Shown in pieces: positions 730-18,274 of a stretch of DNA of 64,000 nt (position 1 is its first letter; each line of letters begins with the position of its first letter). The position numbers and the translations under genes are program-made. The notes below the pieces were generated by a model, which had not been told where the DNA came from, searched no databases, and saw only the letters and a list, made by a program, of their open reading frames with translations. Source of the stretch: an uncultured Solibacteraceae bacterium. Lineage in GTDB: Bacteria; Acidobacteriota; Vicinamibacteria; Vicinamibacterales; SCN-69-37. Location: positions 34,597 through 98,596 of the forward strand of contig CAYYFE010000008.1 of NCBI GenBank assembly GCA_964471115.1. Reading direction: 5' to 3'.

Positions 730-904
730 CGTAAGGCCAGCGACAGAATCCGCGGCGGTGGAAGGGTGCGGATGTCGCGCCGAGTCGGCCCAAGGACATC
801 AGAAGGTCTCTGAAGCGGGACGGCACGAAGCTTGCTACTTAGGAGCGCGAATCACTTGATTCCGCGGCAAGCGCCGCGGAGAGCTGGGGAGCCTGGTGGT
901 TCAC

Positions 905-932
905 AAGGCCCGCGCAAGCGGGCCTTTTTTTT
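905..932 (+). terminator. Rho-independent terminator (7-bp GC stem, GCAA tetraloop, T8)
   Basis: aaGGCCCGC-GCAA-GCGGGCCtttttttt. Perfect stem followed by eight T, the only such T-run-plus-hairpin I found in this GC-rich window. It lies 47 nt upstream of the ATG at 979. Confidence 0.8.
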
Positions 933-978
933 CGTCCCAACCCGCAACATCCCAGGCGGTTCTTCCGTCGGACGGCTC

Positions 979-3331: not shown

Positions 3332-4462
3332 CTACCCGATCGCCCCTTCGGGGTACTGCAGGGCGAGGCGCAGTTCCTTGGCGAGCTGGTCGACGGTCGA
3401 GCCTGACCGCTTCCAGGCGCCGTCGGTTTCAAAGCGCAGGTCGCCGATGCGGCGGCCCCACGGCGCAATGATGCGGCCGATGGCGCGGAAGTCGGCGCGG
3501 TCGGCGCGCTGCTGGTCGAGGTGTTTGACGATGTCCGGGGCCACGCGAATGAAGGCGCGCAGGGCCGGCGCGGTGCGGATCGAGTACTTGCGGCCGTTCC
3601 AGGCCGCGGTGAACACCACGGCGACCTGCTTGAAGTAGTTGACGAAGAACCGCGTGGCTTCGTCGCGGAAGTCTTCGGCCTTGCGGCCCGTGCCGAACGC
3701 CTCGGACGCAAACAGCTTCTTCAGCTCCTGGGCCAGCGGCGCCTGGGCCACGCGGCCGTGTCCGACGCCCAGCAGTTTGATGTCGCCGTGCAGCGGCGAG
3801 TCTTCGCGCTCGCTGAGCGCGCGCACCACGTCGTGCGCCACGGCCAGATTTTCGTCGCGGTAGAGCTGGCGGCCCGAGAGCGACACCAGGTGCGACGCGT
3901 TCAACCGCGTGTGTTTGGCGTTGATCGTGACGAACATCTGGACGACGTGATCTTCGGGCAGGCGGTCGAAGATGACCGCGGGCACGGTGAACGGCTCGTC
4001 GCCGAACTGGTCGATGCCGGCGTGCAGCGCCAGCAGGCGGTGCTGGCCGTCGATGGCGCGCAGGATGCCTTCGCGTTCAGGCACCTTGAGGATGCCGAGC
4101 GACGGTTCGCCCGCCATGGCCTCGAACTTGAGCGGCTCGTCGCAGGAAATGATGACCGCACCGGCAATCGACGGCAGGTCGCGCGCCTGGCGGCACTGCT
4201 CGTAATACCCGACCAGTTCATCGATCTTCTTGCGGATGATCTGACGCTGGTAGGCCTTGTCAGTGGCCGCGATGCGCCGTTCGAGCAGGTCCCACCGGAC
4301 TTTGCTCTGACGGGCGGCGCCGCGGACGCCGGTCTGGGGTCCGTGGTTCTCGTAGTCCAGAACCTCGAAACGGACGAGTTTGTCGATGTCCTTGGCGGTC
4401 AGGCTGGCCTGGTAGAACGTCACGCCAAACTGCTGCATCCGGAGGGCGGCAACACTGATCAT
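3332..4462 (-). CDS. DGQHR domain-containing protein (DndB-like, ParB/Srx nuclease superfamily)
   Basis: ATG at 4462 (MISVAALRMQQFGVTFYQ) within ORF 3332..4651. Literal DGQHR motif in ILRAIDGQHRLLALHAG and FVTINAKHTRL downstream, as in DndB-type proteins. Confidence 0.75.
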   Translation of the reverse strand: MISVAALRMQQFGVTFYQASLTAKDIDKLVRFEVLDYENHGPQTGVRGAARQSKVRWDLLERRIAATDKAYQRQIIRKKIDELVGYYEQCRQARDLPSIAGAVIISCDEPLKFEAMAGEPSLGILKVPEREGILRAIDGQHRLLALHAGIDQFGDEPFTVPAVIFDRLPEDHVVQMFVTINAKHTRLNASHLVSLSGRQLYRDENLAVAHDVVRALSEREDSPLHGDIKLLGVGHGRVAQAPLAQELKKLFASEAFGTGRKAEDFRDEATRFFVNYFKQVAVVFTAAWNGRKYSIRTAPALRAFIRVAPDIVKHLDQQRADRADFRAIGRIIAPWGRRIGDLRFETDGAWKRSGSTVDQLAKELRLALQYPEGAIG

Positions 4463-4538
4463 GGAACCCGGATTGTATCGTGGTAGTCTTTCGGCGCAAA
4501 CCGCTGTTTTTCCGCCAGTTTTCAAGGAGTCGAGAGCA

Positions 4539-7500
4539 ATGAGCGTCGCTGGAACGTCCCGCTGGACCCGCAGGGTCCTGGGAGCCTGCGTCCTTGGCCT
4601 GGCCGTCGCCATCCTGACGGTCGAGCCGCTGCCCGCCCAGCAATGGGTCACAGATACCCGGGACCCGAAGCAGGCCCAGGACGAAGAATTCGCGAAACTC
4701 TACCGCGAGTGGACCGGCGACCCCATGTACGGGTCCCCCCTCGTGGACCACCTGCCCAAGGTGCCGGGCATCCCGACGCCCAAGGACGTGCTGGGGTACC
4801 ACATCGGCGCCCCGGAGAAGCTGACCTACTACGCCGACATCCTGAAGTACTACCGGGCGCTGGCCGCGGCCACGCCGCGGGTCCGGGTGGAGACCATTGG
4901 CAAGTCGGACGAGGGGCGCGAGCTGGTGGTGGTGTGGGTGTCGTCGGACGCCAACATGAAAAACCTCCAGCAGAACCGCGACAACCTGAAGCGGATTGCC
5001 GACCCGCGCGGGCTGTCCGACGCCGATGTGCGGCGCCTGATTGCCACGACCAAGCCGCATTACCACCTGATGGGCGGCCTGCACTCGGGCGAGCTGGGCC
5101 CACCTGAGATGTTGATGGAACTGGTCTACCGCCTGGCGGTGGAGACCTCTCCGCTCATCACGCAGATTCGCAACAACGTGATCGTGTCGGTGACGCCGGT
5201 GGCTGATGCGGACGGCCGCGATCGCAACCTCGACTGGACGTTCCAGACGCGAGACCTGCAGGCGGCGGCCGCCGGGCCGGGCGCGGCGGGCGCCGGGGCG
5301 GGTGCGGGCCGTGGCGGCGGCGCGCCGATTCCTTACTGGGGCAAGTACGTCTATCACGACAACAACCGCGACATTAACCTCTCGCAGATGCAGATGCGCG
5401 CGCTGGGTGACTGGTACTTCACCGCGTACCCACCCATCATGCACGACCTGCACGAGTCACTGACGCTGCTCTACACCTACAGCGGCGGCCCGCCCCAGAA
5501 CCCGAACCTCGATCCGATCCTGTTCGCGGACCTGCGGCTCTGGGCCGACTTTGAACTGTCGCAGATGACGAAATACGGCATGCCGGGCGTGTATACCCAC
5601 GCGTTCATGGATGGCTGGTCGCCGGGCTACCTCGGCTCGATCGCCTACAACCACAACGGCATGATGAAGATGTACGAAACGCAGTCGGGTAACGACTCGA
5701 GGGCGTTGCGAGTGGCGGCAAGTGGCGGCGGAGTGGCGGCAAGTGGCGGCACCGCAAGTGGCGGCGGAGTGGCGGCAAGTGGCGGCCAGGCGGCAAGTGG
5801 CGGCCAGGCGGCGGGGGCCGGCCCGGGCCGTGGCGGCCGGGGCGCTGGCGCGCCCGCCGGTGGCGGACGAGGTGAAGGCGCGGGCCAGGCCGCGGGCCGG
5901 GGGGCCCAGCCGCCCGCCGCAGCCGGCCGCCAGGGCGGCGGTCGCGCGGGAGGCATTCCCACCGGCGCCGGCGGCGGACAGCCGCGTGAATGGTATCGGG
6001 GCTTGCCGGTACCGCCCGACGCGGTGGCGAACTTCTCCCGCCGCAACAACACGAACTACATGCAGACGGGCGTGCTCTCGGCGCTGCAGTTCACCTCGAT
6101 GGTGCCCAACATGGTCATCGAGAACTTCTACGTGAAGACCCGCAACTCGATGCAGCGCGGCCTCAATGAAGCGCCGCACGCCTACGTGATTCCGGTGCAG
6201 CGCGACATGACGCGTGTGGCCGAGATGCTGCGGATCTTCGCCATCCAGGGAATCGAAGTCAGCCAGGCCAAGGCGGCCTTCAAGGTCGGCGACGAATCCT
6301 TCCCGGCCGGCTCGTACCTGGTCAAGGCCGGCCAGCCGTACTGGAGCCTTGCCAAGAACCTGCTCGAAAAGCAGGACTACCCGGATGAACGGCTGTCGAC
6401 CTACGACGACTCGGGCTGGACGATGGGGCCGGCCATGGGTGTGGACGTGCGCGAGATTCGCGACAAGCAGGTGCTGGAGGTGCCCGCGACCATCGTGAAG
6501 CAGTCGACGCACGGCGCCAGCATCGGCGGCACCGGCACGGCCGCGCTCGCCGTGGCGCACTTCGGCTCGAACAACATGATCTCGTTCCGCTTCGCGATGA
6601 AGGACACGCCGATGAAGGTGGCGCGCAAGGCCTTCACGGCCGGCGGCATCGAGTTCCCCGCCGGCTCGTTCATCGTGACGTCGAACATCCCGGCCGCGCG
6701 CGCGGCGGTCGAGAAGTTCGGCCTCACCGCGGCCGCGCTGGCCTCGGCGCCCACCGTCGAGACCCACGAGGCCGACGTGCCGCGTGTGGCGATCTACTCG
6801 CAGTGGAGCGGCACGCAGGAACTCGGCTGGTACCGTCATGCCTTCGACCAGTTCGGCATCCCCTTCGACCTCATCTACAAGGAGCGGGTGGTCAAGGGCA
6901 ACCTGAAGGCCGACTACGACGTGATCGTCATGGCCTACCAGGGCATCAACCGGCAGTCGGTGATGCAGCAGCCGGCCGCGCGGCCGGTGCCGTACAAGAA
7001 GACGGACAAGTTCCAGTTCCTCGGGATGTACGGCGAAACCGATGACGTCACCGGCGGGTTCGGGCAGGCCGGCGTCGACGCGTTCGCCGCGTTCCTCGAG
7101 GCGGGCGGCACGCTCATCGCCGCGCACAACGCCACGCGGTTCCCGATCGAGTTCGGGTTCACGCGCACGGTCGACACCGAGCAGGTGTCAGGCGTCACCG
7201 CGCAGCGGCCGCTCGTGCAGGCCGAGATCTCGAAGCCGGAGCATCCGGTGTTCTACGGCTACGGCAAACCCGAGTTCGCGGTGAAATACGTGAACGGCCC
7301 CTTCCTGCGCACGGGCATGGCCGAACAGGGCAACGTCCTGGCGCGGTACAAGGGCGGAGACGACGCGATCATTTCCGGCCTGATGGTGGGCGCCGACACG
7401 CTCGCGGGCCGGCCGATCGCGATTGACGTGCCCAACGCCTACAACGGCAAGGGACGCGTGATCCTGTTCGCCAACAACCCGATCTATCGCTGGCAGAACC

Positions 7501-7553
7501 ACGGCGAGTTCAACATGGTGTTCAACTCGATCGTGAACTGGAACGATAAATAG
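4539..7553 (+). CDS. M14 family zinc carboxypeptidase-like protein with long Gly/Ala-rich inserts
   Basis: ATG at 4539 followed by a signal peptide (VLGACVLGLAVAILTVEPLPAQQ). HxxE zinc motif in GGLHSGELGPPE. Low-complexity inserts are encoded at about 5259-5325 and 5700-5985. Confidence 0.7.
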   Translation: MSVAGTSRWTRRVLGACVLGLAVAILTVEPLPAQQWVTDTRDPKQAQDEEFAKLYREWTGDPMYGSPLVDHLPKVPGIPTPKDVLGYHIGAPEKLTYYADILKYYRALAAATPRVRVETIGKSDEGRELVVVWVSSDANMKNLQQNRDNLKRIADPRGLSDADVRRLIATTKPHYHLMGGLHSGELGPPEMLMELVYRLAVETSPLITQIRNNVIVSVTPVADADGRDRNLDWTFQTRDLQAAAAGPGAAGAGAGAGRGGGAPIPYWGKYVYHDNNRDINLSQMQMRALGDWYFTAYPPIMHDLHESLTLLYTYSGGPPQNPNLDPILFADLRLWADFELSQMTKYGMPGVYTHAFMDGWSPGYLGSIAYNHNGMMKMYETQSGNDSRALRVAASGGGVAASGGTASGGGVAASGGQAASGGQAAGAGPGRGGRGAGAPAGGGRGEGAGQAAGRGAQPPAAAGRQGGGRAGGIPTGAGGGQPREWYRGLPVPPDAVANFSRRNNTNYMQTGVLSALQFTSMVPNMVIENFYVKTRNSMQRGLNEAPHAYVIPVQRDMTRVAEMLRIFAIQGIEVSQAKAAFKVGDESFPAGSYLVKAGQPYWSLAKNLLEKQDYPDERLSTYDDSGWTMGPAMGVDVREIRDKQVLEVPATIVKQSTHGASIGGTGTAALAVAHFGSNNMISFRFAMKDTPMKVARKAFTAGGIEFPAGSFIVTSNIPAARAAVEKFGLTAAALASAPTVETHEADVPRVAIYSQWSGTQELGWYRHAFDQFGIPFDLIYKERVVKGNLKADYDVIVMAYQGINRQSVMQQPAARPVPYKKTDKFQFLGMYGETDDVTGGFGQAGVDAFAAFLEAGGTLIAAHNATRFPIEFGFTRTVDTEQVSGVTAQRPLVQAEISKPEHPVFYGYGKPEFAVKYVNGPFLRTGMAEQGNVLARYKGGDDAIISGLMVGADTLAGRPIAIDVPNAYNGKGRVILFANNPIYRWQNHGEFNMVFNSIVNWNDK

Positions 7554-7564
7554 GCCACAGGCTG

Positions 7565-7598
7565 CAGGGATCAGGGCTCAGGGATCAGGGCCCTGATC
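7565..7598. repeat. heptamer array CAGGGMY x4 containing the 16-bp perfect palindrome GATCAGGGCCCTGATC
   Basis: cagggat cagggct cagggat cagggcc at 7565-7592; palindrome at 7583-7598. Sits at the junction of convergent genes and overlaps the last codons (RALIPEP) of the minus-strand gene. Confidence 0.7.
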
Positions 7599-8242
7599 TC
7601 CTTGATCTCGAAGCGGAATGTGCCATCGGCGCTGGCGCCCCAACGCCAGTGCCGAAGGCCGCCGGGCGAGGTGGTGAGCGGGCCGAAGGTGGTGCCCGTC
7701 TCGTTGTCCCACGTGCCGAACAGGATCGGTTCGCCCAGCGAGTTGAGGACGAGCCAGTTGAGCCGCCGCCCGTCGGCGCGGTAGATATCGATCCGGTTGG
7801 CGCCTGAGGCGCGGACCGTCAGGTCGGGATCGCGCCGAGCCAGGCGATGCAGCGTGCGGTACACGTTGGATTCCCACCACGCGTATTCCGAAGCCACCTG
7901 TTCGGGCGTCAGCGGGTTTGTCTCGCCGCCAACCCTCCTCGAGCCCGCGGCGCCGTCAAGTTCGCGTTCACGCGTCTGGCCGCCGATGTGCGCCTCGATC
8001 CGCACCTTCGGCGCGGTGAAGTCGTTCCAGATCTGATTGCGGAACGGCGCGCCGATGGTCGCGTCCCAATGGGTCGCATCCACGTGCACGGCGGACGTGC
8101 GCGCCCACAGGGCGCGACCGCCCATGGCCTCGAGCAGCGCGTCAACCCGCGCCTCGGCTGAGGCCGGCTGAGCGGTCCACGCGGTGGTCGTCACCATCAT
8201 CGCCACGGCAGCCATCCACATCGTCCTTCGCAGGGTGTGCAT
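7571..8242 (-). CDS. hypothetical secreted protein
   Basis: ORF with a signal-peptide-like N-terminus (MWMAAVAMMVTTTAWTAQPASA) and non-biased composition. No family recognised. Confidence 0.5.
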   Translation of the reverse strand: MHTLRRTMWMAAVAMMVTTTAWTAQPASAEARVDALLEAMGGRALWARTSAVHVDATHWDATIGAPFRNQIWNDFTAPKVRIEAHIGGQTRERELDGAAGSRRVGGETNPLTPEQVASEYAWWESNVYRTLHRLARRDPDLTVRASGANRIDIYRADGRRLNWLVLNSLGEPILFGTWDNETGTTFGPLTTSPGGLRHWRWGASADGTFRFEIKEIRALIPEP

Positions 8243-8314
8243 CCGGCTACGTTAGCGGTCCGGGTTCGCCGGATCGGCGAGGTTGTGACGACCGCCGCTC
8301 AACCGGGTGTGGAA

Positions 8315-8790
8315 TCAGCGCAGCGATACGCGGCCGGGCGCCTCGAGCCGAAGGACGCGCCCGTCGGCCAGGGTCAGCGGGTAGGCGCCCTGCGGGAGCA
8401 GCAGCGTGTGCTCGGTGGTCGCGCCGCGACGGGCCAGCGTGACCGGCAGATGTTCGTACGGCACGGCGCAGTCACTGCCGGGAACCCCTTCCAGCAGCGC
8501 ACCCGCCAGAAGGGGCGACGGCACGATCTGGCGCCGCTGCGGCAGACCCGTCGTCGGCACCGTCGGCGTGACAATGACCGACTCGTCGGTGGCGTCCGGC
8601 ACGACGACGGTCTGCGCCTCAGCGGGCGTGACGGTGCCGCGTCGGCGCCTACGCAACGACGGCCAATCGATACACACTGCGCGGTAGGTTGTTCACTTCA
8701 ACAGGAAGGGTGAAATCATGAACGGATTCTTCGCGAATGCCCCCGCGCACGTCGTAGTAGATCGTGCCCAGCACCGCCGACACGCTGGGG
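8315..8790 (-). pseudogene. decayed, 5'-truncated paralog of the secreted protein gene at 12989..13840
   Basis: 8333-8640 matches 13013-13320 with about a dozen mismatches. 8650-8775 matches 13590-13730, so about 270 nt are missing between the two blocks. In-frame TAG at 8649-8651 in the homologous frame (LGTIYYDVRGGIREESVHDF...LAVVA*). The signal-peptide end is absent. Confidence 0.65.
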
Positions 8791-8811
8791 CCTTGAGTAA
8801 CGCGTGGCGAC

Positions 8812-11800
8812 TCACACGGCTCGCACGTCCTTGACGAAAGTCATGATCGATACGGGGAAGCTGAAACCGATGTCCTTCCCGCCCAAGCGCTGTAACGCTG
8901 AATGAACTGAAGCGAGGTCGATTTCGTCTTCCTCCGCGCCCGCAAAGCGGCCGAAGGGTGTCGGCTGATTGCCGTTCCAGAGGTGGTATCTGGTGAAGTC
9001 TTCCAGGAGGCGCCACCGCTCATCAGGCGTCCACCGATCTTTCACAACGGCAGGGTCAGCCGGGAGCCCTGACTCAGCCTGGCCTTCCACGTACTCCAGT
9101 GCTCTCTTCAGGCCAAGCTCATTAAACAGCATCGGGAAGAGTCGGTAGGCATACTCTCGTCGGTCTCCTACCAGTCTCAGATTCGTTCCTTCATCATGGC
9201 AGAGCCAAGCCTCAAGTTCATGCGCACTTGAGAAGTACCTGTGCTCCAGTTCGTGGCGATTATCGTTGACCCAGTCCTTGAGCATCACCCACAGATTACA
9301 GAAGAATCCATGATCAGGCGCCTGAGCCTGGAAGCTCATGTCCTCAAGTAGTCGTCGGCGCAGGCCAGTCAGCACGGCCTCCCGTTCCTGGAGCGTTCCC
9401 CGGTCGAGTACGACACTGGCCTCGACCAATCGGCCACGGACCGCCTCCAGGCTCAGACGTTGCGCTTCCGTCATCTCCGGCGGCGCATCGGCATAGAGAA
9501 TGAACTGACCATTCTGCGGTAGTGTCAATCGGCATTGTTCCAAGAGCTGTCGTTGCTCGTTTCTGCTGAGTTCGTGCAGCGCCTTCTTGGCAACAATGAG
9601 ACGGACAGGAGCCGGTAAGGAGTCCGAGTAAACAGAGTTGAGTGCGCCAACCAGTTCGAAGTCACCGGTAACCTCTCGCTGGAGCGCCATAAAGCGGCGT
9701 CCCTCACCCAGTCGTTCAAAGTCCTGCTTCACGGTGAGCAGCTGCGACGTATTGCGATCGACGGCCAGGACATGAAGACCCGCAGGGCTATGCTTCATGA
9801 CTACTTCACGCGTCTCAGGATTGCCGCCACCTGCCATCAAATCCACAAGCGCCTGCGGACCGGGCTCCCGGGCACTCTCGTCTAGCGCCCGGGCGATCCT
9901 TGCGCAATAGTCCGTGACAGCTGCCGCAGCCCCTGGTCCAGTGAGTACCGCCTGCCGTTCGCTGAAGAGCGTGGCATACGCGCCACGATAGCGCGTTGTA
10001 TAACGAACGGCGCCGAGGCGCACGAGTTCGTCGACCGTCACATTGCCGCATTGTCGCAACTCGGTGCCTTCCAGCAGCAGATTCCTGAACCTCACACCGA
10101 CTTCAAGGCAGGCGTCGATTGAAAACTTGCAGCCACTGAAGTGCGCTCCAGTCGCGTCGGCCCCGGACAGTAGCGCGCCTGAGAGGTCGCACTGCTCCAA
10201 CCTCGCGTTTCTCAAGTTCGCTCTGACCAAATCGGCTCCGACGAGGCTGCACCCCCGAATTGTCACTCCAGCGAGATCGGCACCCGACAGCTTCAACCCA
10301 TCAAGTTGACTCCACCCTTGGTTCCCATCAATCAGGAGGGGCAGCCCGCGAGCACGCATTGATAAGACTGCCAACTGAAGAAGGTTGGTGCCATGAAAGA
10401 CCTCCGGGTTGTCCAGGAACATCAGCCCATCTGAAGGACTTCCCATACGCCTACAGCTGGACAACCTGGTCGCGATCTCGCCAATCGACAGCCCCTCAAG
10501 CAATACCGAGACGTGCTGTACCAAGTTCCAGCTCCACTTGAACGCAAGGCTCTCAGGCAGCCGACCGCCTGCCTGAACCGCGTCTGCGATCGGCTGAGCC
10601 AGAAAGAAGTCAAGCATGTGTGCAGACCCAATCGATCCGGCATTGCCGCCCCGGTCGACGACGAGCTCGTCCGCGAGTCGAACGGCCGACCACACTGGCT
10701 GATCGGCAACCGGGACGTGGAACACGCCGCACCTGGCGGACTGTACCGCCATGCGTTCCAAGAACTTACGTACTGCGGCCGGCGCCACCTTTTCACGGTC
10801 AAGGGCCCGGCTGAGACGGCCCACTGCCAGGTTCGCAAGATGCTCGAGGAGTTGGAGTTCGCCGAGGCCCGGAGTCTCCAGAATCTTTGCAATCTCCTCC
10901 GGTTCAGTCACAGCCAGAACTGCGACTTTTCCCAGGCAGCGAGGGCTTCTCAACCAGGACTCATTGCGATGCTCGTGCAGAAATCGCTCGAACGCTTCTC
11001 GACCAGCTCCGCCATCGGGTACCCGGTCGCGAACATATCGAACAGCCTCGGCCGTCGTCCAGAACGGCGGGAGGCGCACGGCCGACCAGCGAGCGAAGTG
11101 TGCGTCTTCCGCGACCTCCGGCCTTGATGCAATGATCCCGCGGACAGGATAGTCTGCGGCTAACCGCTCCAGCTCCACAGCCAACCGCACCGTGGTGCGA
11201 AGACGCTCGAGCTCGTCATAAGCGTCAACCAGCAGGACCACACCACCTGATCGAAATAGCGCCAGCAACTTCTCGACCGCGCGTTCGCCGCCACCGAGCC
11301 CACGATTGTTCAGCCATATTGCCAGCAAGGTCTCAAGCAGCTCCGCTCCGCTGGCCGCCCGCCGGATTGACGCCGAATCGCGTACGCTCTCAAGGTGTCG
11401 AGGCTCGAGCAAGAGAGGGATCGGCCTATTCGGATCAGCTCGACGGGCTTCTATCAGCTGGAAGTAGAGCCGATGCATCAGGGTCGTCTTCCCCGCCCCA
11501 GCTGGACCGACGATCCATTGCATCACACCGGCCGTCCCCTCTTGACTGATTCTCTGCTCCACAGCGACCCTGGCGGATTGGGCGTCTCCATCTACGTGGA
11601 TATCAACGAATGAACCGAGGGCCTCCCAGTGGGCCTTCGAGAACCCTCCGCCAACTTCGTCAGCAGAGTGAATCTCTGAATCAGCAATGAACTCGAATCG
11701 CCGAACCAGGGGATCTCGCCTGAGCGGTCCGACATTGGCGGCGTACTCACGAGCGCGAGTGAGGTTGTATCGATCGATCCGAATCACAAGGTCGGGCTCT

Positions 11801-12051
11801 GTTCTCGGAGTCCTCCTTCGATCGCGATGGAGAAAGAACACCGCACCACAGGTCAGGACCACGAGCGTCAATGACACTCCAAGCCAGGTGGTCACACTTT
11901 CGTAGAGGCCTCCCAGCAGTGCCCAGCCTGAACCGGTCAGAATCGCGAATGAGGCCGTGCTCGGGTAGCGCTGCCGGAGAGTTCGCAGCCAGCCATCGAG
12001 CGTGGGACCGGACTCCTCATCCGTCTGGCGCTTCTCTTTGTGGGGTTGCAA
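8812..12051 (-). CDS. membrane-anchored NACHT/STAND-like P-loop NTPase with pentapeptide repeats and a class I methyltransferase-like domain (1079 aa)
   Basis: Two N-terminal TM helices (aa 33-50, 56-74). Walker A GPAGAGKT (aa 182-189, nt 11485-11508) and Walker B VVLLVDAYDE (aa 271-280). Pentapeptide repeats LSGAD LAGVT IRGCS LVGAD LVRAN LRNAR LEQCD LSGAL LSGAD (aa 586-645). MTase-like motifs LVDLMAGGG, VLAVDRN, LIVAKKALHEL, NGQFILYAD (aa 735-855). Sample 60-mers are clearly lower in GC than the flanks. Confidence 0.8.
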   Translation of the reverse strand: MQPHKEKRQTDEESGPTLDGWLRTLRQRYPSTASFAILTGSGWALLGGLYESVTTWLGVSLTLVVLTCGAVFFLHRDRRRTPRTEPDLVIRIDRYNLTRAREYAANVGPLRRDPLVRRFEFIADSEIHSADEVGGGFSKAHWEALGSFVDIHVDGDAQSARVAVEQRISQEGTAGVMQWIVGPAGAGKTTLMHRLYFQLIEARRADPNRPIPLLLEPRHLESVRDSASIRRAASGAELLETLLAIWLNNRGLGGGERAVEKLLALFRSGGVVLLVDAYDELERLRTTVRLAVELERLAADYPVRGIIASRPEVAEDAHFARWSAVRLPPFWTTAEAVRYVRDRVPDGGAGREAFERFLHEHRNESWLRSPRCLGKVAVLAVTEPEEIAKILETPGLGELQLLEHLANLAVGRLSRALDREKVAPAAVRKFLERMAVQSARCGVFHVPVADQPVWSAVRLADELVVDRGGNAGSIGSAHMLDFFLAQPIADAVQAGGRLPESLAFKWSWNLVQHVSVLLEGLSIGEIATRLSSCRRMGSPSDGLMFLDNPEVFHGTNLLQLAVLSMRARGLPLLIDGNQGWSQLDGLKLSGADLAGVTIRGCSLVGADLVRANLRNARLEQCDLSGALLSGADATGAHFSGCKFSIDACLEVGVRFRNLLLEGTELRQCGNVTVDELVRLGAVRYTTRYRGAYATLFSERQAVLTGPGAAAAVTDYCARIARALDESAREPGPQALVDLMAGGGNPETREVVMKHSPAGLHVLAVDRNTSQLLTVKQDFERLGEGRRFMALQREVTGDFELVGALNSVYSDSLPAPVRLIVAKKALHELSRNEQRQLLEQCRLTLPQNGQFILYADAPPEMTEAQRLSLEAVRGRLVEASVVLDRGTLQEREAVLTGLRRRLLEDMSFQAQAPDHGFFCNLWVMLKDWVNDNRHELEHRYFSSAHELEAWLCHDEGTNLRLVGDRREYAYRLFPMLFNELGLKRALEYVEGQAESGLPADPAVVKDRWTPDERWRLLEDFTRYHLWNGNQPTPFGRFAGAEEDEIDLASVHSALQRLGGKDIGFSFPVSIMTFVKDVRAV

Positions 12052-12139
12052 CGCGGCGTCTCCTTTCCGACATCTACCTTACCGCCTGCCCCACACTCCG
12101 TCTTCCCGACGAGTGGACGGCTTGCTTGCTGACTCTTGG

Positions 12140-12937
12140 TCACCGTTCCTTGGGGTGGACCATCAGAGTCATATCTTCATCAAACCCCGTTGCCTCCTGC
12201 CCAGAATACCCGCGCTGATTGCAGAGGACGAGGGTTTCACCCAGTGTATAGCGGCAGTTCCAATGTGTATGGCCATGAATCCAGTAGGGGGACCCAGACC
12301 CCGCAACCAGGGCGTCCAGGTGGGAGGCGTACGCCGCTGAAAGTGGATCGGACACGAGAGTGGGCTCCAGAGACCGGTCGCTCGGTGCATGATGAGTAAC
12401 GATCACCGTCGGCAGCGGTGAAGGCTCTGCCAGCGCTGTTTGAAGCCAGCGCACCGCCTCACGGTGCCATGTCATCACTTGCGTCGGTACCAACTTCCTG
12501 TAGGTGGGCCGCACACGAATCTTTCGGAAGTCCGTCATGCCTTCATGGACGGCCGCGATCGCTTCTGGATCGCCGCCGTGCAATTGCAGATCTGACCACA
12601 GCGTCGCTCCAAGGAATCGTACGCCGCACACCGTCCGCGCCTCGTTGTGCAGCACGTGCACTCCCAATGCCGCCCCCCGTTCACGGGCCACCTGAATGAA
12701 GTCTGGCATCACTCGCCCGTAACACTCGTGGTTGCCAAGAACGTACACGACCGGAACGTCAGGAAACGTCCGCGCGGCCCATTCGATCCCTCGTGTCCCC
12801 AAGTGGATGTCACCGGCCAGCACAACACAGTCCGCCCCACCTCCGTGCAACGTGACGTCTCCGAATTCCAGGTGGAGATCACTGAGTACGCGGACCCGAA
12901 CGGGTGCCGAACCGCGTTCGTCGAGATCCTGACCCAT
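12140..12937 (-). CDS. calcineurin-like metallophosphoesterase
   Basis: Complete motif series VLSDLHLE (DxH), LAGDIHLG (GD), VLGNHECY (GNHE), VTHHAP and IHGHTH. Located 88 nt upstream of and co-directional with the NTPase gene. Confidence 0.8.
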   Translation of the reverse strand: MGQDLDERGSAPVRVRVLSDLHLEFGDVTLHGGGADCVVLAGDIHLGTRGIEWAARTFPDVPVVYVLGNHECYGRVMPDFIQVARERGAALGVHVLHNEARTVCGVRFLGATLWSDLQLHGGDPEAIAAVHEGMTDFRKIRVRPTYRKLVPTQVMTWHREAVRWLQTALAEPSPLPTVIVTHHAPSDRSLEPTLVSDPLSAAYASHLDALVAGSGSPYWIHGHTHWNCRYTLGETLVLCNQRGYSGQEATGFDEDMTLMVHPKER

Positions 12938-12988
12938 GCCACCATCATCACACGGGCGGGGCCACTGAGCGTCGCTCCGGAAAGCGAA

Positions 12989-13840
12989 TTAAGGATCCGG
13001 AAGCACAATCTGGCCGGGCGCCTCGAGCCGAAGGACGCGCCCGTCGGCCAGGGTCAGCGTGTAGGCGCCCTGCGGGAGCAGCAGCGTGTGCTCGGTGGTC
13101 GCGCCGCGACGGGCCAGCGTGACCGGCAGATGTTCGTACGGCACGGCGCAGTCACTGCCGGGAATCCCCTCCAGCAGCGCGCCCGCCAGAAGGGGCGACG
13201 GCACGATCTGGCGTCGCTGCGGCAAACCCGCCGTCGGCACCGTCGGCGTGACAATGACCGATTCGTCGGTGGCGTCCGGCACGACGACGGTCTGGGCGTC
13301 GGCTGGCGTGACGGTGTGACAGGTCACGCCCCAGTGCAGCGTGCGCACGGTGAGCCAGGTGCCCGCGGCGATGGTCGCCAGACTGATGCGCCCCTGCTCG
13401 TCGGTGGCGCTGTTGACGGCCGCGGGCCGCGTGTAGAACTGCGCGCCGGCCGCCGCGTGGCCTGCGGCGTCCACCACTCTGACAAACCCGCGCCGCTCGA
13501 CGAGATTCGCACGGAGCGATGTCGTCTCGCCGGCCGTCACGCGCGCATCGAGCACCCGTTCGGCCACCAGCGCCCGGGTCGGTGCCTGCGCGACGACGGC
13601 AAATCGATACACGCCGGGCGGCAGGCTGGTCACTTCAACAGGCCGGCTGAAATCGTGGACGGACTGTTCGCGAATGCCGCCGCGTACGTCGTAGTAGATC
13701 GTGCCCAGCACCGCCGTCGTGCCGAGGCGGCCGTCCTCCGAAAACGCGATCGCGACCGTGCCCGTGGCGGTCTGCGCCTTCGGACTACCCCAGACGCAGG
13801 CGAGGGCCAGCGCGAGCACGGTGGCGACGCGGCCCGTCAC
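12989..13840 (-). CDS. secreted repetitive beta-sandwich protein (carboxypeptidase-regulatory-like fold suspected), paralog family member
   Basis: GTG start at 13840 overlaps the upstream stop. Signal peptide MTGRVATVLALALACVWGSPKAQT. Shares the WG(V/I)TCH motif and the C-terminal LxDGRVLxxxxPG motif with the upstream paralog. Confidence 0.6.
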   Translation of the reverse strand: MTGRVATVLALALACVWGSPKAQTATGTVAIAFSEDGRLGTTAVLGTIYYDVRGGIREQSVHDFSRPVEVTSLPPGVYRFAVVAQAPTRALVAERVLDARVTAGETTSLRANLVERRGFVRVVDAAGHAAAGAQFYTRPAAVNSATDEQGRISLATIAAGTWLTVRTLHWGVTCHTVTPADAQTVVVPDATDESVIVTPTVPTAGLPQRRQIVPSPLLAGALLEGIPGSDCAVPYEHLPVTLARRGATTEHTLLLPQGAYTLTLADGRVLRLEAPGQIVLPDP

Positions 13841-15492
13841 CGAATCTCCAGCCGGCCCGGCGACGTCACCGCCAGCACCCGCCCATCGCGGAGCACAAGC
13901 TGATACTGCCCCGGCGGCAGGTCGATCGACAACTCGAGCCCTTTGGGCAAGCGCGTCTCGGCGACCGAGAAACCCTCAAACGGCACGTCGCAGGTCGCGG
14001 TGCTCACGCCACGCACGACCGCGCCGCCCAGGATTCGCTTGAGATCCGCCGCCGCGAGGGTGCCGAGATTTGGTTTGTCGCCATCATGCGGGTACAAGAT
14101 CGACACCCGCGCGGTGTGATTCACCACCGTGGCCACCTGTATCGCGTCGGTGGTCACGACATGACAGGTGATGCCCCAGTTCCTGGTGCGCACGACCACG
14201 CGACTGCCCGGCGCGATTGTTGAGAGCGAGACCTCGCCGCGATCATCGGTCGACAGACGCGACCCCAGCGGCTGTCCGTAGACACTCGCACCCTCGATGG
14301 GTTGCCCGATGTGATCGACCACGCGCAGCATCGCTGACGTTGGCACCAGATCGATGAGCACGTCGGTGGCCGCGTCCGGGCGCACGGCGACATCCTGCAT
14401 GCGCGACGCCACGAGCGCCAGCGGCGGCCCATCGTCACGTGGCAGCGTCGCGGATGCGGTGACCGTGTACGTGCCAGGCGAGAACACGCGCTGTTCGTAA
14501 CCCGCGACAGGATCAGTCAGGCGCTGAACCGTCGGTGGGTGAGGCAGCAGCTGCGTGGTGACATTGACCAGCATGATGTCGGGTACGATGCCACCTCGGT
14601 ACGACACGAGTACGCGAATCCTCGCGTCGGCCAGCTGCACATCGTGACGGTTGCTGCCCGGTTGAATCACCACGTCTGCGGAGGCCGGAGGCAGGCTGTG
14701 GACGCCCGTGGCGGTGTACTCCGGCACGTACGTGCCTGGCGCCGGCAGCACGGTGACATAGGCCCCGTCACGGCCGGAAGGCACGTTCGAGAACACGATT
14801 GGCGACTCCGGAGTCAGAGCCAGCCCCGGCGTGGACGCCACCGACAAGCCGGTCATCCTCGATCGGAACGATACGCGAACACCGGAGACCGGCTCCCCAC
14901 CCGCCGTGACCTGTCCGCGCACGACGACGGGCGGGTGCGGCAGGCGAACGGACGTCCATTCACCGGCGCGCACCTGGAACTGCAGCATGTACGGCGGAAG
15001 GACCGACGACGGCGGCGTGACCTGGAGTTGGTACCGCCCCGCCTGCAGGCCGCCGACCTCGCGCACGCAGGTCCCAATCGATGGCATCGTCCAGCCGGCA
15101 GGTTCTTTGTCGGTGCCATGCTGCGCAATGACAAGTACGGTGCTGCGAAACGTCCATTGATCGCCTGGCTCACACATGCCCGGATCGGCGTTGAACCGCA
15201 CGCCGCCACGTCGCGACGTGCCCAGCACCACTTCCGCCACACCCGCACGCGTGATCGTGATGTTCTGCGAGAAGTCAGCGACTGAGCCTGCAAACACGGA
15301 CCGGACGCGGTACCCGCCCGGTGTCAACTGCGTCAGCGCCATCCGGAGCGATTCGCCCAGCGGCCACTCTCCGCTGGTCGGACCTTCCAGCCGCACGGCC
15401 ACCGGCCGCACCGCGCTGTCTTCGATGTGGACCACGAGCGAGCCCGTGGACAACCAGCCGGCGGCAATCAGCGTGAAGATGGCCGTGCTCAT
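13837..15492 (-). CDS. secreted repetitive beta-sandwich protein, paralog family member
   Basis: ATG at 15492 (MSTAIFTLIAAGWLSTGSLV) shares one nt with the upstream TGA. C-terminus is LVLRDGRVLAVTSPGRLEIR. The upstream part of track ORF 13837..15639 overlaps the preceding gene and is not counted. Confidence 0.6.
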   Translation of the reverse strand: MSTAIFTLIAAGWLSTGSLVVHIEDSAVRPVAVRLEGPTSGEWPLGESLRMALTQLTPGGYRVRSVFAGSVADFSQNITITRAGVAEVVLGTSRRGGVRFNADPGMCEPGDQWTFRSTVLVIAQHGTDKEPAGWTMPSIGTCVREVGGLQAGRYQLQVTPPSSVLPPYMLQFQVRAGEWTSVRLPHPPVVVRGQVTAGGEPVSGVRVSFRSRMTGLSVASTPGLALTPESPIVFSNVPSGRDGAYVTVLPAPGTYVPEYTATGVHSLPPASADVVIQPGSNRHDVQLADARIRVLVSYRGGIVPDIMLVNVTTQLLPHPPTVQRLTDPVAGYEQRVFSPGTYTVTASATLPRDDGPPLALVASRMQDVAVRPDAATDVLIDLVPTSAMLRVVDHIGQPIEGASVYGQPLGSRLSTDDRGEVSLSTIAPGSRVVVRTRNWGITCHVVTTDAIQVATVVNHTARVSILYPHDGDKPNLGTLAAADLKRILGGAVVRGVSTATCDVPFEGFSVAETRLPKGLELSIDLPPGQYQLVLRDGRVLAVTSPGRLEIR

Positions 15493-17219
15493 CACCGGAT
15501 CTCGAGCGTGCCCGGCGCGGTGGCGCGGTACGTCTGCGACCCGTACTCGTACGTCACGGACACGCCCAGCGGCAGATTGGCGATCGCGAATCCGCCGTCG
15601 ACCCGACGCCAGTCGAATTCCTCGAGGGGCACTGTGCACCGATCGACGTCAGCGAGCCGGATCCGGCCGGGGGGCACACGCAGCCCGGCCGCGCCCGGCA
15701 GAAAGACGGTCAGCGGCGCGAGTGACGATGACAGCGTCACCGTGTTGGGGGCATCGGCCGCAAGCACGACGCAGGCCGGCACGCGGCCGGGCGCGCGAAC
15801 GATGACCTCGGCGCCTGGCGCGAGCCGCCTGACATCAAAGGCGCCATCGGCCAACGCGCGCAGAATGGTGCCGCCCGAGCGCGCCCGCGCACCGGGCGCG
15901 TCCACCACCGCCAGCGTGGCCCGCTGCGGGCGCAGGTTCAGCGTGACCGCGCGAACGCCCGGATTGGCGTCGATCTGGACGGTGGCCGCCGAGGAGACCA
16001 GGTCCGGGTCGGCATGGCCGTACACGACGTACGTGCCGAGCGGCAGCGCCCGCAGCACGATCGGCCGCAGCGGATCGTCGACGATCCCGGAGTAACGAAC
16101 GGGGCCGTCGATCTCGAACCGCACCGGATCCTCGGGCAACGCGCCTTCGACCAGGAACGACAACCGCACATCGGCGCCCGCCAAGTCGAGGTCGATGATC
16201 GTCTCGCCGACGTCGACGGGACGATCGACTTCGGCGACCCCCAGGTCGTCGCCGGTGGCCAGCCGCACCACATACACGTCCGGCGCGGGCACGGTGAGGC
16301 TGTAGCGGCCGCGATCGTCGGTCGTCACCGTCCACACGCGGTCGGTGCGCGTGGCCAGCACCTCCAGCGGTTCACGCGTCATCGGCTCGCCGTTAAGCGT
16401 CACGAGGCCGCTGATGCGGAGCTCTCCGGCCTCCACGGGCAGGCGCGGGGAAAACTCCGTGGTGGCCTCGTGCACCACACTCACCGGGATCGGGCGGCCG
16501 ATGGGCGTATCGGGCGGTCCGAACCGCAGTTCGTAGTCGCCGGCCGGCAAACCCGGCACGGACACGAACGCGGCGCCGTTGATGCCGACGATCCGTTCCT
16601 GCGGGCCGCGCAGCGTGAGCACTGCCTCAGCGCGTTCAGCCGGCCCGAACGCCAGCAGCAGCTCGCCGCCCGGCAGCGCAGGGGGCACGCGCATGGTCAG
16701 GTCCTGGGCCGATTCTGGCGTCACGGCCGGCACGATCAAGGTGACCGGAGACGCCCCGGCGCGATGGACGCGCATCAGGCGCGCCCCGGCGGCGAGCGGC
16801 CACGGGTCCAGCATCGCGGCAGTGACCGTGCGAGCGGCCAGCACGTGCGACACCGAGTCGCCCCACGCACGCCACTCCACGGTGGCGGGCGTGCGCAGCG
16901 TCCAGGTCGGCACGAGGAACCGCACGGCCGGCTGCATCGCGGCTGACGCGCCACGGCACGCCGACGCGATGTCGATGTCGAGCGGCTCGGCGCCGGGAAC
17001 CGAACACTGCACGATCCCGGTTGAGACACACAGCGCCTCGGCAAACGCAGCACCGCCGCTCCCCGGACGCAGCAACGCCGCGCCGGTCGGGGTACGGCAC
17101 GCGTCGAACGCCGAGACGCCGGCGCCCGGCAACATTTCGACCTGGACCGGCCGCCAGCCCCCTTGCGTCGTGACGACGGCCGTGGCCATCAACACGCCGA
17201 GCATCCCCCGCATGGTCAT
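15492..17219 (-). CDS. secreted repetitive beta-sandwich protein, paralog family member
   Basis: ATG at 17219 (MTMRGMLGVLMATAVVTTQG) overlaps the stop of the DUF1624 gene (ATGA). C-terminus ends APGTLEIR like its paralog. The 908-aa track ORF extends upstream in a frame that overlaps the DUF1624 gene, so that part is rejected. Confidence 0.6.
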   Translation of the reverse strand: MTMRGMLGVLMATAVVTTQGGWRPVQVEMLPGAGVSAFDACRTPTGAALLRPGSGGAAFAEALCVSTGIVQCSVPGAEPLDIDIASACRGASAAMQPAVRFLVPTWTLRTPATVEWRAWGDSVSHVLAARTVTAAMLDPWPLAAGARLMRVHRAGASPVTLIVPAVTPESAQDLTMRVPPALPGGELLLAFGPAERAEAVLTLRGPQERIVGINGAAFVSVPGLPAGDYELRFGPPDTPIGRPIPVSVVHEATTEFSPRLPVEAGELRISGLVTLNGEPMTREPLEVLATRTDRVWTVTTDDRGRYSLTVPAPDVYVVRLATGDDLGVAEVDRPVDVGETIIDLDLAGADVRLSFLVEGALPEDPVRFEIDGPVRYSGIVDDPLRPIVLRALPLGTYVVYGHADPDLVSSAATVQIDANPGVRAVTLNLRPQRATLAVVDAPGARARSGGTILRALADGAFDVRRLAPGAEVIVRAPGRVPACVVLAADAPNTVTLSSSLAPLTVFLPGAAGLRVPPGRIRLADVDRCTVPLEEFDWRRVDGGFAIANLPLGVSVTYEYGSQTYRATAPGTLEIR

Positions 17220-18274
17220 GACGATGTGCGCTGGGCGATGAGGTGATCGGGAATCCACGGCGTCACCGTGCGCCGTTTCCACCAAGCGGCGAGCCACAAC
17301 ATGAACAGCGTGAACAGGGCGTAGGCGATCAGGGACTCGGGAATCGTCAGTGATCGTTTGAGGAACGCGCTCAGCAGTCCGTAGGCCAGTTCCACGTGCA
17401 CCCAGTAGACGAAGAGCGAGGTCTGGCCGAAGAGCACCAGCGGGCTCCAGCGGGACGCGGTGGATCGCTGGTACCAAAGCCACGCTCCGGCCACCATCAG
17501 GATCATCCAGCCGGTGCGCGCGGACAGAAACGACCAGGCCGTCACGCCGGCGGTGGGCAGCGCCGCGGGCAGCAGGGCGCCGATCCAACCGGCGGCGACG
17601 GCGGCCGCGCCCACAGCCGCCAGACGCAAGTGGAACGCGCGTTCCTGTTCGGCGGCACGCCCGCGCGCGATCCACAGTCCCACCAGCGCACCGGCCACCA
17701 TGAACACGAGCCAGGGGAACAACGGGAACTGCCCGAAGCCGCCGTTGGGCCGGATGTAGGCCTCGAGCCTGGGATGCAACTGCGTCGGCCACTCCCACAG
17801 CCGCGAGTACGGCGTCACGACGAGAACGACCAGCAGCGCGGCGGAGAGGACACCCACACGGGCGCGCAGGTCGCGACCGCGTCCCCAGAGCCACGCCACC
17901 AGCACCATGCCCAGCCCGAGGATGTTGAGGATGTCGGGTTTGAAGATCGAGTGCCAGACGCCGTACGGATTGAGCAGGTACGACTGCACCCGGAAGACGT
18001 GCGCGAAGAAGAAGATCTGCCAGCCGCGGCGCTGCAGCGCGCGCGACGCGTCCGCGTCGCTGCGGCCCTTGCGCACCTGCGCGTCGGCGGCCATCGGGAT
18101 GGCAAGCCCGGCCAGGAACAGGAAGAGCGGCGCGGCCCACCCGCCCAGAATGGCCAACCACAGAAACTCGCGGCTGCCGCGTTCGGTGTCGGCCGTCCAG
18201 GCATCCACCGCGTGCCACTCGATCATGATGAGCACGGCCACGCCGCGCAGCCAGTCGATGTACGTGCGGCGCAC
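17216..18274 (-). CDS. DUF1624 / heparan-alpha-glucosaminide N-acetyltransferase-like membrane acyltransferase
   Basis: Polytopic membrane protein starting MRRTYIDWLRGVAVLIMIEWHAVDAW, the family N-terminal signature (DxxRG...M...H). About 9-10 hydrophobic segments. Confidence 0.6.
   Translation of the reverse strand: MRRTYIDWLRGVAVLIMIEWHAVDAWTADTERGSREFLWLAILGGWAAPLFLFLAGLAIPMAADAQVRKGRSDADASRALQRRGWQIFFFAHVFRVQSYLLNPYGVWHSIFKPDILNILGLGMVLVAWLWGRGRDLRARVGVLSAALLVVLVVTPYSRLWEWPTQLHPRLEAYIRPNGGFGQFPLFPWLVFMVAGALVGLWIARGRAAEQERAFHLRLAAVGAAAVAAGWIGALLPAALPTAGVTAWSFLSARTGWMILMVAGAWLWYQRSTASRWSPLVLFGQTSLFVYWVHVELAYGLLSAFLKRSLTIPESLIAYALFTLFMLWLAAWWKRRTVTPWIPDHLIAQRTSS

Follow-up and report, generated by a model that had tools for sequence, protein, structure and literature searches.

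A block of about 4.2 kb in the genome of an uncultured Solibacteraceae bacterium was probably acquired horizontally, as an insertion into a tandem array of host genes, and carries two accessory genes that would be functionally independent of each other: one encodes a self-contained NACHT protein (P0001) and the other a metallophosphoesterase (P0003) that simply lies next to it. The block is located in a stretch of 64,000 nucleotides of contig CAYYFE010000008.1 (assembly GCA_964471115.1, positions 34,597 to 98,596), hereafter the window, whose numbering is used throughout. A first-pass annotation of this DNA had described the two genes as a sensor NTPase and its phosphoesterase effector, a candidate defence system. 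We found that they are not a conserved pair, and that the NACHT protein is a member of a rare family in which the NTPase is followed by a highly conserved tail. The block and its genes are as follows.

8797..12988, no strand assigned: insertion of ~4.2 kb with low guanine-plus-cytosine (GC) content and two genes, bounded by the points at which the two copies of the flanking gene cease to be homologous

8812..12051 including the stop codon, minus strand: P0001, NTPase of the NACHT clade of signal transduction ATPases with numerous domains (STAND), 1079 amino acids (aa), TTG start

12140..12937, minus strand: P0003, metallophosphoesterase, 265 aa, recognised by Pfam PF00149, its catalytic motifs and an AlphaFold2 model

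These are the only two open reading frames (ORFs) in the block. Both are intact and lie on the minus strand 88 nt apart, with the coordinates and lengths given in the first-pass annotation. The TTG start of P0001 is preceded by AAGGAG at a spacing of 8 nt, and the protein was divided into the following parts.

11830..11955, minus strand: N-terminal hydrophobic segments, residues 33-50 (weak) and 56-74 (strong), by Kyte-Doolittle hydropathy

11092..11556, minus strand: P-loop NTPase core, residues 166-320, with Walker A GPAGAGKT and Walker B LLVDAYDE

10042..10326, minus strand: pentapeptide-repeat beta-helix, residues ~576-670, Pfam PF00805

9442..9861, minus strand: divergent domain resembling class-I S-adenosylmethionine (SAM) methyltransferases, residues ~731-870, with DLMAGG, D765, KKALHE and D855-x-P857

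8815..9321, minus strand: conserved C-terminal extension, residues ~911-1079, with N-x-W-x3-KDW-x-N-x-N-x2-E, RYFSS and FNE

The Walker A motif of P0001 (residues 182-189) conforms to GxxxxGK[ST], and its Walker B motif (DAYDE, residues 276-280) conforms to D[GAS]hDE, the NACHT-specific definition of Kibby et al. (preprint 10.1101/2022.07.19.500537). Because both motifs are present, P0001 is assigned by sequence to the NACHT clade of STAND NTPases. The first-pass annotation had come to the same view of the large gene, and the N-terminal hydrophobic anchor, pentapeptide repeats and methyltransferase-like region that it listed were all recovered. The Pfam models that it named for checking gave a divided answer. 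Those for tandem A(D/N)LXX pentapeptide repeats (PF00805, 54.5 bits with a cut-off of 20.2, residues ~580-670) and for the phosphoesterase (PF00149) scored above their cut-offs, while the NACHT model (PF05729) reached 23.3 bits, under its cut-off of 26.7, and the methyltransferase signal in P0001 by itself was a single sub-threshold match of a C-terminal fragment to Methyltransf_2 (17.4 bits, cut-off 22.3). The 19-residue Kyte-Doolittle mean rises to 2.2 in the hydrophobic segments (window starts 52-59) and is at most 1.4 elsewhere in the protein; these segments are a predicted membrane anchor and might also serve as the effector. Across the family described below, residues 321-575 can be aligned and are conserved.

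Comparisons with collections of known systems returned little for P0001. PADLOC gave no convincing model, its best hits being matches to the P-loop only (E 0.009-0.05), and NCBIfam gave no meaningful family, with Qnr-type models all far under their cut-offs. A full-length profile compared with the Protein Data Bank (PDB) matched only pentapeptide proteins, with E-values down to 8.5e-19.

The relatives of P0001 were reached by an exhaustive search. A word-indexed homolog search with P0001 returned one relative only, P0002 (34% identity over the full length), and a word-indexed search with a 28-sequence profile returned pentapeptide proteins only. The family emerged when 1.84 billion cluster representatives were searched exhaustively with a profile, which yielded about 30 representatives of 976-1421 aa alignable from the NTPase to the C-terminus (full-length relatives P0123-P0148 and P0160); a further 28 loci came from metagenomes. 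The distribution of the family is rare and patchy. In the databases searched, of 5.8 billion and 1.84 billion proteins, the closest relatives were 34-35% identical for the NTPase and 57% identical for the phosphoesterase. No member of the NTPase family is included in PADLOC-DB 2.0, and none was found by a scan of viral contigs or by tblastn against plasmids.

Conservation within the family is uneven along the protein. Invariant residues in an alignment of 28 members include G187 and K188 (Walker A) and D276 and D279 (Walker B) in the NTPase; the DxMAGG motif (737-742), D765, K823, A824, H826, E827, D855 and P857 in the methyltransferase-like domain; and N919, W921, K925, D926, E934, R938, F940, N977 and E978 in the last 170 residues. 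Of the 28 members, 27 have the D[GAS]hDE signature, 14 a Pfam NACHT match (E<=1e-3; best 1.9e-11) and 11 an nSTAND_NTPase5 match. Mean pairwise identity is lowest at the N-terminus (0.19), followed by the helical region (0.22), the NTPase core and the pentapeptide repeats (0.31 each), the C-terminal extension (0.36) and the methyltransferase-like domain (0.39), which is the most conserved region of the protein. The N-termini are swapped among members. They consist of TIR_2 (7e-15), an alpha/beta-hydrolase (3-4 members; by Pfam, Abhydrolase_1 in three, Abhydrolase_6 and Hydrolase_4), EAD11 (one member), long unassigned regions, or hydrophobic segments. The TIR, alpha/beta-hydrolase and EAD11 domains are kinds typical of conflict systems, and variable N-termini ahead of a NACHT module and a tail give the architecture of single-gene conflict proteins resembling nucleotide-binding leucine-rich repeat (NLR) proteins.

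The methyltransferase-like character of the tail is more visible in the family than in P0001. The Pfam models Methyltransf_12, Methyltransf_25 and Methyltransf_11 match 9, 8 and 6 of 22 C-terminal modules, respectively, at 1e-6 to 1e-7. The best matches of a C-terminal-module profile in the PDB are weak (E 0.04-0.9) and are nearly all class-I SAM methyltransferases, with an alignment that covers the 'LHH'-type motif of beta4 and strand beta5. The acidic residue after beta2 is D765, which is invariant, as is KKALHE. The domain might bind SAM or perform catalysis, but its catalytic competence is uncertain because the first Gly of motif I (E/DxGxGxG) is replaced by Met, giving DLMAGG. The extension of ~170 aa that follows has 21 columns with at least 90% conservation and had no sequence match in Pfam or the PDB and no described family. 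An AlphaFold2 model of the C-terminal 520 residues, built with a 2-sequence alignment, had a predicted local distance difference test (pLDDT) score of 44.6 and was left out of the fold search as unusable, although its alternation of strands and helices would fit a Rossmann-like core.

The same tail occurs behind a different NTPase. Members of a second lineage (P0172, P0174, P0175, P0192, P0194, P0204 and P0207; ~900-1180 aa) have only the C-terminal ~390 residues in common with the P0001 family; their NTPase is weakly nSTAND_NTPase5-like, with Walker A GxEGAGKSRLA, and they lack pentapeptide repeats. Since the module stands behind two different NTPases, it appears to move between NTPase families. 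Four shorter proteins (P0156, P0159, P0161 and P0185; ~440-510 aa) consist only of the pentapeptide repeats, whole or in part, and the methyltransferase-like module. They may be free-standing forms, or gene calls that were cut short on small metagenome contigs.

Parts of this architecture have already been described. Kibby et al. (10.1101/2022.07.19.500537) list pentapeptide repeats and transmembrane segments among the domains of bacterial NACHT proteins, and NACHT proteins with TIR or hydrolase effectors are likewise known. Like P0001, the bNACHT proteins of that study are encoded by single genes, display Walker A and D[GAS]hDE motifs, and have a tripartite layout in which a variable N-terminal effector (TIR, hydrolase or transmembrane) precedes the central NACHT module and a presumed sensor forms the C-terminus. 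P0001 differs beyond the repeats, where its C-terminus continues into a conserved SAM-methyltransferase-like domain and the ~170-aa extension. For the bNACHT01 clade, the same authors reported rapid diversification of the part that follows the NACHT module on its C-terminal side (the SNaCT domain), whereas the tail of the P0001 family is more conserved than the NTPase core. The word 'methyltransferase' is absent from the main text of that preprint.

Other known systems bear a more partial likeness. Avs and other STAND defence proteins in PADLOC-DB are built alike, from an exchangeable N-terminal effector, a STAND NTPase and a recognition region at the C-terminus, but P0001 matches none of the PADLOC models and has no TPR-like sensor region. 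In the Avs proteins that have been characterised, the sensor is TPR-like and binds the terminase or portal of the phage. The right-handed quadrilateral beta-helix formed by the repeats is shared with Qnr, MfpA and AlbG; in P0001 it makes up ~95 residues embedded in a multidomain protein of 1079 aa, and a DNA-mimic or gyrase-protection role is not implied. Kaur, Burroughs, Iyer and Aravind (PMC8195603) described bacterial proteins with variable N-terminal effectors or effector-associated domains (EADs), STAND NTPases, and pentapeptide, TPR or HEAT repeats. The P0001 family resembles these systems in having one relative with EAD11 and others with nSTAND_NTPase5-like signatures. A tail of pentapeptide repeats and a methyltransferase-like domain is not described there, and the methyltransferases mentioned in that work are those of eukaryotic histone methyltransferase complexes only. 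A NACHT protein whose C-terminus runs into a SAM-methyltransferase-like domain and extension was not found in the literature searched or in PADLOC-DB 2.0, and P0001 is for this reason a new variant among bacterial NACHT proteins.

By analogy with characterised bacterial NACHT proteins and Avs, the C-terminal module of P0001 (pentapeptide beta-helix, methyltransferase-like domain and extension) would bind a trigger or ligand, upon which the NACHT NTPase would be released to oligomerise. The N-terminal module would then give the output, through one or two membrane helices in P0001 and through TIR, alpha/beta-hydrolase or EAD11 domains in its relatives. The direction of signalling, a role in defence and a membrane effector are thus proposed on the strength of this analogy.

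Several observations weigh against such an immune role. Many phage-sensing STANDs have sensors that evolve fast, yet in this protein conservation is highest in the C-terminal module, which weakens the immune reading; the model of this module is of no useful confidence. The genomic neighbourhoods of the family are also mostly housekeeping and are not defence islands. Annotation of 64 neighbours with Pfam and PADLOC revealed housekeeping genes for the most part; two TIR proteins and a scattering of kinases and AAA proteins made up the exceptions. A tail more conserved than the NTPase and neighbourhoods of this kind weaken the simple idea that P0001 is a receptor for a phage protein.

The same two observations keep alive another explanation, which we judge unlikely: P0001 might be an enzyme or signalling ATPase under regulation, with the methyltransferase-like module as its catalytic output. 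The module would methylate a small molecule, a protein or a nucleic acid, and its activity or location would be controlled by the NACHT module and the variable N-terminus. This explanation would account for the concentration of identity and of most of the invariant residues in the methyltransferase-like domain and extension, and is in line with the occurrence of the tail on the nSTAND5-like lineage that has no pentapeptide repeats and with the lack of family members in the viral contigs and plasmids searched. The N-termini of the family argue for a conflict protein instead, as TIR, alpha/beta-hydrolase and EAD11 are conflict-system modules whose swapping among close relatives is a hallmark of these systems (PMC8195603). 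The altered motif I, the rare and patchy distribution of the family, and the position of the gene in a compositionally foreign island also speak against an enzyme.

Should P0001 be an NLR-like immune protein, it would have an uncommon sensor end, namely a conserved, enzyme-like module of predicted methyltransferase fold in place of a fast-evolving repeat array. Bacterial NLRs would then seem able to sense metabolites or to act as 'guards', for which few examples exist. We can envisage, as a very tentative proposal with a low probability, that the tail is an unrecognised portable sensor module, common to the NACHT and nSTAND5-like lineages, that monitors a conserved small molecule or methylation substrate and not a variable phage protein, for example by guarding the SAM pool against phage SAM-degrading enzymes. 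This would account for the greater conservation of the sensor end than of the NTPase. The tail module, found also on a second NTPase lineage, is a concrete object for testing this. The NTPase family and its portable tail merit structural and biochemical study; a new two-gene system is unsupported, as detailed below.

The small gene proved to be a common one. As the first-pass annotation stated, P0003 is a calcineurin-like metallophosphoesterase: it matches PF00149 with 36.9 bits (cut-off 21.5) and displays the complete motif set DxH, GD, GNHE, HH and GHxH. When 26 relatives are aligned, the corresponding residues (D20/H22, G42/D43, G68-N69-H70-E71, H182/H183 and G222-H223-x-H225) show little or no variation. 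More than 7,400 relatives were found, with a length of ~248 aa, the closest being 57% identical. The annotated ATG start (12880-12937) adds ~12-19 residues that nearly all homologs lack, and the first ~10 residues are modelled as disordered (pLDDT below 50 for residues 1-5); the real start may be a GTG ~12-19 codons downstream, around VRVRV. The AlphaFold2 model of P0003 (pLDDT 92.5) is a single compact domain with neither an adaptor nor an EAD-like extension, and the protein resembles the solitary homologs in length and shape. NCBIfam and PADLOC gave no meaningful family for it; the PADLOC comparison included a weak match to the candidate system PDC-S10 (E 1.2e-4). No PADLOC model matched either protein convincingly, in line with the first-pass annotation, which had recognised no named system in the pairing or architecture.

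The best fold match of P0003 in the PDB is PptH (Rv2795c, 6unc), the phosphopantetheinyl hydrolase of M. tuberculosis. Both have a calcineurin-like fold, with a template modelling (TM) score of 0.71 over ~286 alignment columns, and share N-terminal metal-binding motifs. The likeness, at 18% identity and with an E-value of 0.002 for the sequence profile, does not reveal the substrate of P0003. Unlike PptH, the ~248-aa family is far more widespread and without a conserved genomic partner. Cyclic-nucleotide phosphodiesterases and glycerophosphodiesterases were further off in the fold search, and the nucleases Mre11 and SbcD were distant (TM 0.42-0.50). Judged by its sequence, P0003 belongs to a very widespread family of PptH-like metallophosphoesterases, of which it is an ordinary, solitary member, and its active-site motifs are intact.

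Linkage of the two genes was examined from both sides. For the NTPase, a pattern scan of metagenome contigs provided 28 loci, to which the locus of P0002 (L001) was added. Useful flanks were present at about a dozen of the 28; flanks were searched up to 10 kb, and less on short contigs. Within these flanks a phosphoesterase-family profile (E<=1e-3) matched at none of the 29 loci, and clustering of the NTPase-family loci revealed no conserved neighbour. For the phosphoesterase, 80 loci from many phyla were taken, with one genome per species. BLAST of P0001 against all their ORFs found no such NTPase within 8 kb at any of the 80 loci and returned one stray pentapeptide protein, and all-against-all clustering gave no conserved neighbour family. 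Annotation of 145 immediate neighbours of the phosphoesterase with Pfam and PADLOC placed no family in more than 4-5 of them, and three homologs on long contigs had unrelated, varied contexts. Apparent conserved neighbours on both sides were rejected: they were antisense ORFs inside the query genes or synteny of close relatives, which in the phosphoesterase set was local, among related Gammaproteobacteria.

The closest homolog of P0001 offers one such context. P0002 has no phosphoesterase neighbour, and lies beside a divergently transcribed 303-aa gene of no known family and a VirD4/TraG-like coupling protein. At 7576-9956 and 13448-14005 of its locus, P0002 is flanked by the coupling protein (T4SS-DNA_transf, 4.8e-58) and by the 303-aa and 185-aa genes. 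Starting with the TraG-like gene, the GC content of this locus is lower, ~0.57 in place of ~0.61. These surroundings are possibly the remnant of a conjugative element.

The two genes are therefore not a conserved pair, and a two-gene defence system defined by conserved co-occurrence is not supported. A lack of genomic linkage in other organisms is one of the outcomes that the first-pass annotation had itself named as refuting its sensor and effector pair. In that model, a membrane-anchored NACHT protein would sense infection and activate the phosphoesterase as a trans-acting effector, locally recruited, that degrades nucleic acid or nucleotides. We consider it quite unlikely, and retain it as a possibility specific to this locus. 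Points in its favour, which also count against two independent genes, are that the genes are adjacent and co-oriented and share an atypical composition, with matched GC content at third codon positions (GC3; 0.656 and 0.662). They probably arrived together, and they may be co-transcribed and have a locus-specific functional link. Relatives of P0001 bear a TIR or hydrolase domain, but P0001 itself lacks an enzymatic domain at the N-terminus, and calcineurin-like phosphoesterases are among the enzymatic and effector domains fused to conflict-system proteins (PMC8195603); the PDC-S10 match of P0003 may be added to these. Beyond the absence of co-occurrence on both sides, the phosphoesterase lacks any extension that would set it apart from its solitary homologs, and its closest fold match is a small-molecule or prosthetic-group hydrolase, with the nucleases far behind. 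This case also calls for some caution, as adjacent island genes of matched composition resembled a system and yet were unlinked elsewhere. Co-occurrence should be checked before defence systems are named.

The acquisition of the block, as two independent genes inserted together into the host array, is read from its composition and its limits. The features on either side are as follows.

12989..13840, minus strand: intact flanking gene, 283 aa, no Pfam match, first in a tandem paralog set

8315..8796, minus strand: decayed copy of the flanking gene, 5'-truncated and internally deleted

The GC content of positions 8797-12988 is 0.603, and that of the rest of the window is 0.685. Among 516 other non-overlapping windows of 4.2 kb, the minimum was 0.659 and the mean 0.684 (standard deviation 0.011), which places the island ~7 standard deviations below the mean, in agreement with the compositional departure first noticed from hand counts. 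A 500-nt profile displayed values of 0.58-0.63 over ~8750-13000 and of 0.66-0.73 in the flanks. GC3 is also low in both island genes, a decrease of 12-23 points from the 0.78-0.89 of neighbouring genes that ends exactly at the homology junctions.

These junctions lie at ~8797 and at 12989-13011. Positions 8332-8631 match 13012-13311 with 96% identity and positions 8637-8791 match 13574-13728 with 84% identity, so that the block does stand between an intact gene and a decayed copy without its 5' end, as previously described. The remnant lacks the 5' ~110 nt and contains three in-frame stops; we also found an internal deletion of ~258 nt that had escaped the earlier description. The truncation of this copy coincides exactly with the junction. 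The long flanking repeats of the island are thus copies of a host gene. The host array itself comprises tandem paralog genes of 283, 600 and ~908 aa at 12989-18218 (minus strand) and the remnant at 8315-8796, with overlapping stop and start positions. Two of the paralogs at 12989-18218 have CarboxypepD_reg-like domains, and the C-terminal ends of the paralogs are alike by eye. The island is inside this array, and one paralog is truncated.

No hallmark of a mobile element other than the atypical composition was detected: there is no integrase, transposase, tRNA or attachment (att) target and no terminal repeat made by the insertion, in accordance with the first-pass annotation. The entire 64 kb contained no tRNA, positions 7500-14000 matched no Rfam family, and a scan for promoters and terminators gave nothing informative. 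The 8-nt direct repeat TCACACGG, which had been noted near both edges and allowed for as chance, is present in three copies and one reverse complement in 64 kb, with ~2 expected. Its copies lie within or beside genes and not at the homology junctions. Because its frequency is near expectation and its positions are off the junctions, the repeat is a chance one, and it was rejected as an att site. An exact-sequence look-up of the two flanking host genes, made in search of an empty site, found nothing.

That the block is an old resident, its lower GC content arising from gene-specific constraints and its flanking repeat from ordinary tandem duplication and decay in a paralog array, is very unlikely: it would fit the lack of an integrase, tRNA or att site and the membership of the flanking genes in a tandem paralog family, but not the drop in GC3 in both genes that stops at the junctions, the exact truncation of the adjoining copy, or the remoteness of the closest relatives of both proteins in the databases searched.

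The island was also seen as short contigs. The Logan contigs L003 (4292 nt), L004, L119 and L120, from independent read sets (ERR34949xx), are the same island re-sampled. The ends of L003, mapped through the position of the phosphoesterase gene, lie ~30-47 nt inside the repeats on either side. Such ends would be expected if the assembly broke at the duplicated host gene, and they are not evidence for a circular form.

The remainder of the window displays other paralogous genes. Three genes for MacB_PCD/FtsX permeases of ~830-880 aa lie within 25 kb (832-3321, 18795-21422 and 22533-25175). An M14 carboxypeptidase gene at 4461-7553 has a long, Gly/Ala-rich insert of low complexity at ~5500-6250, with repeats such as GGVAASGG and AGRGG, a local GC content of 0.73 and a positive GC skew. 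The permease paralogs and the M14 peptidase suggest a high-GC chromosome of the soil type.

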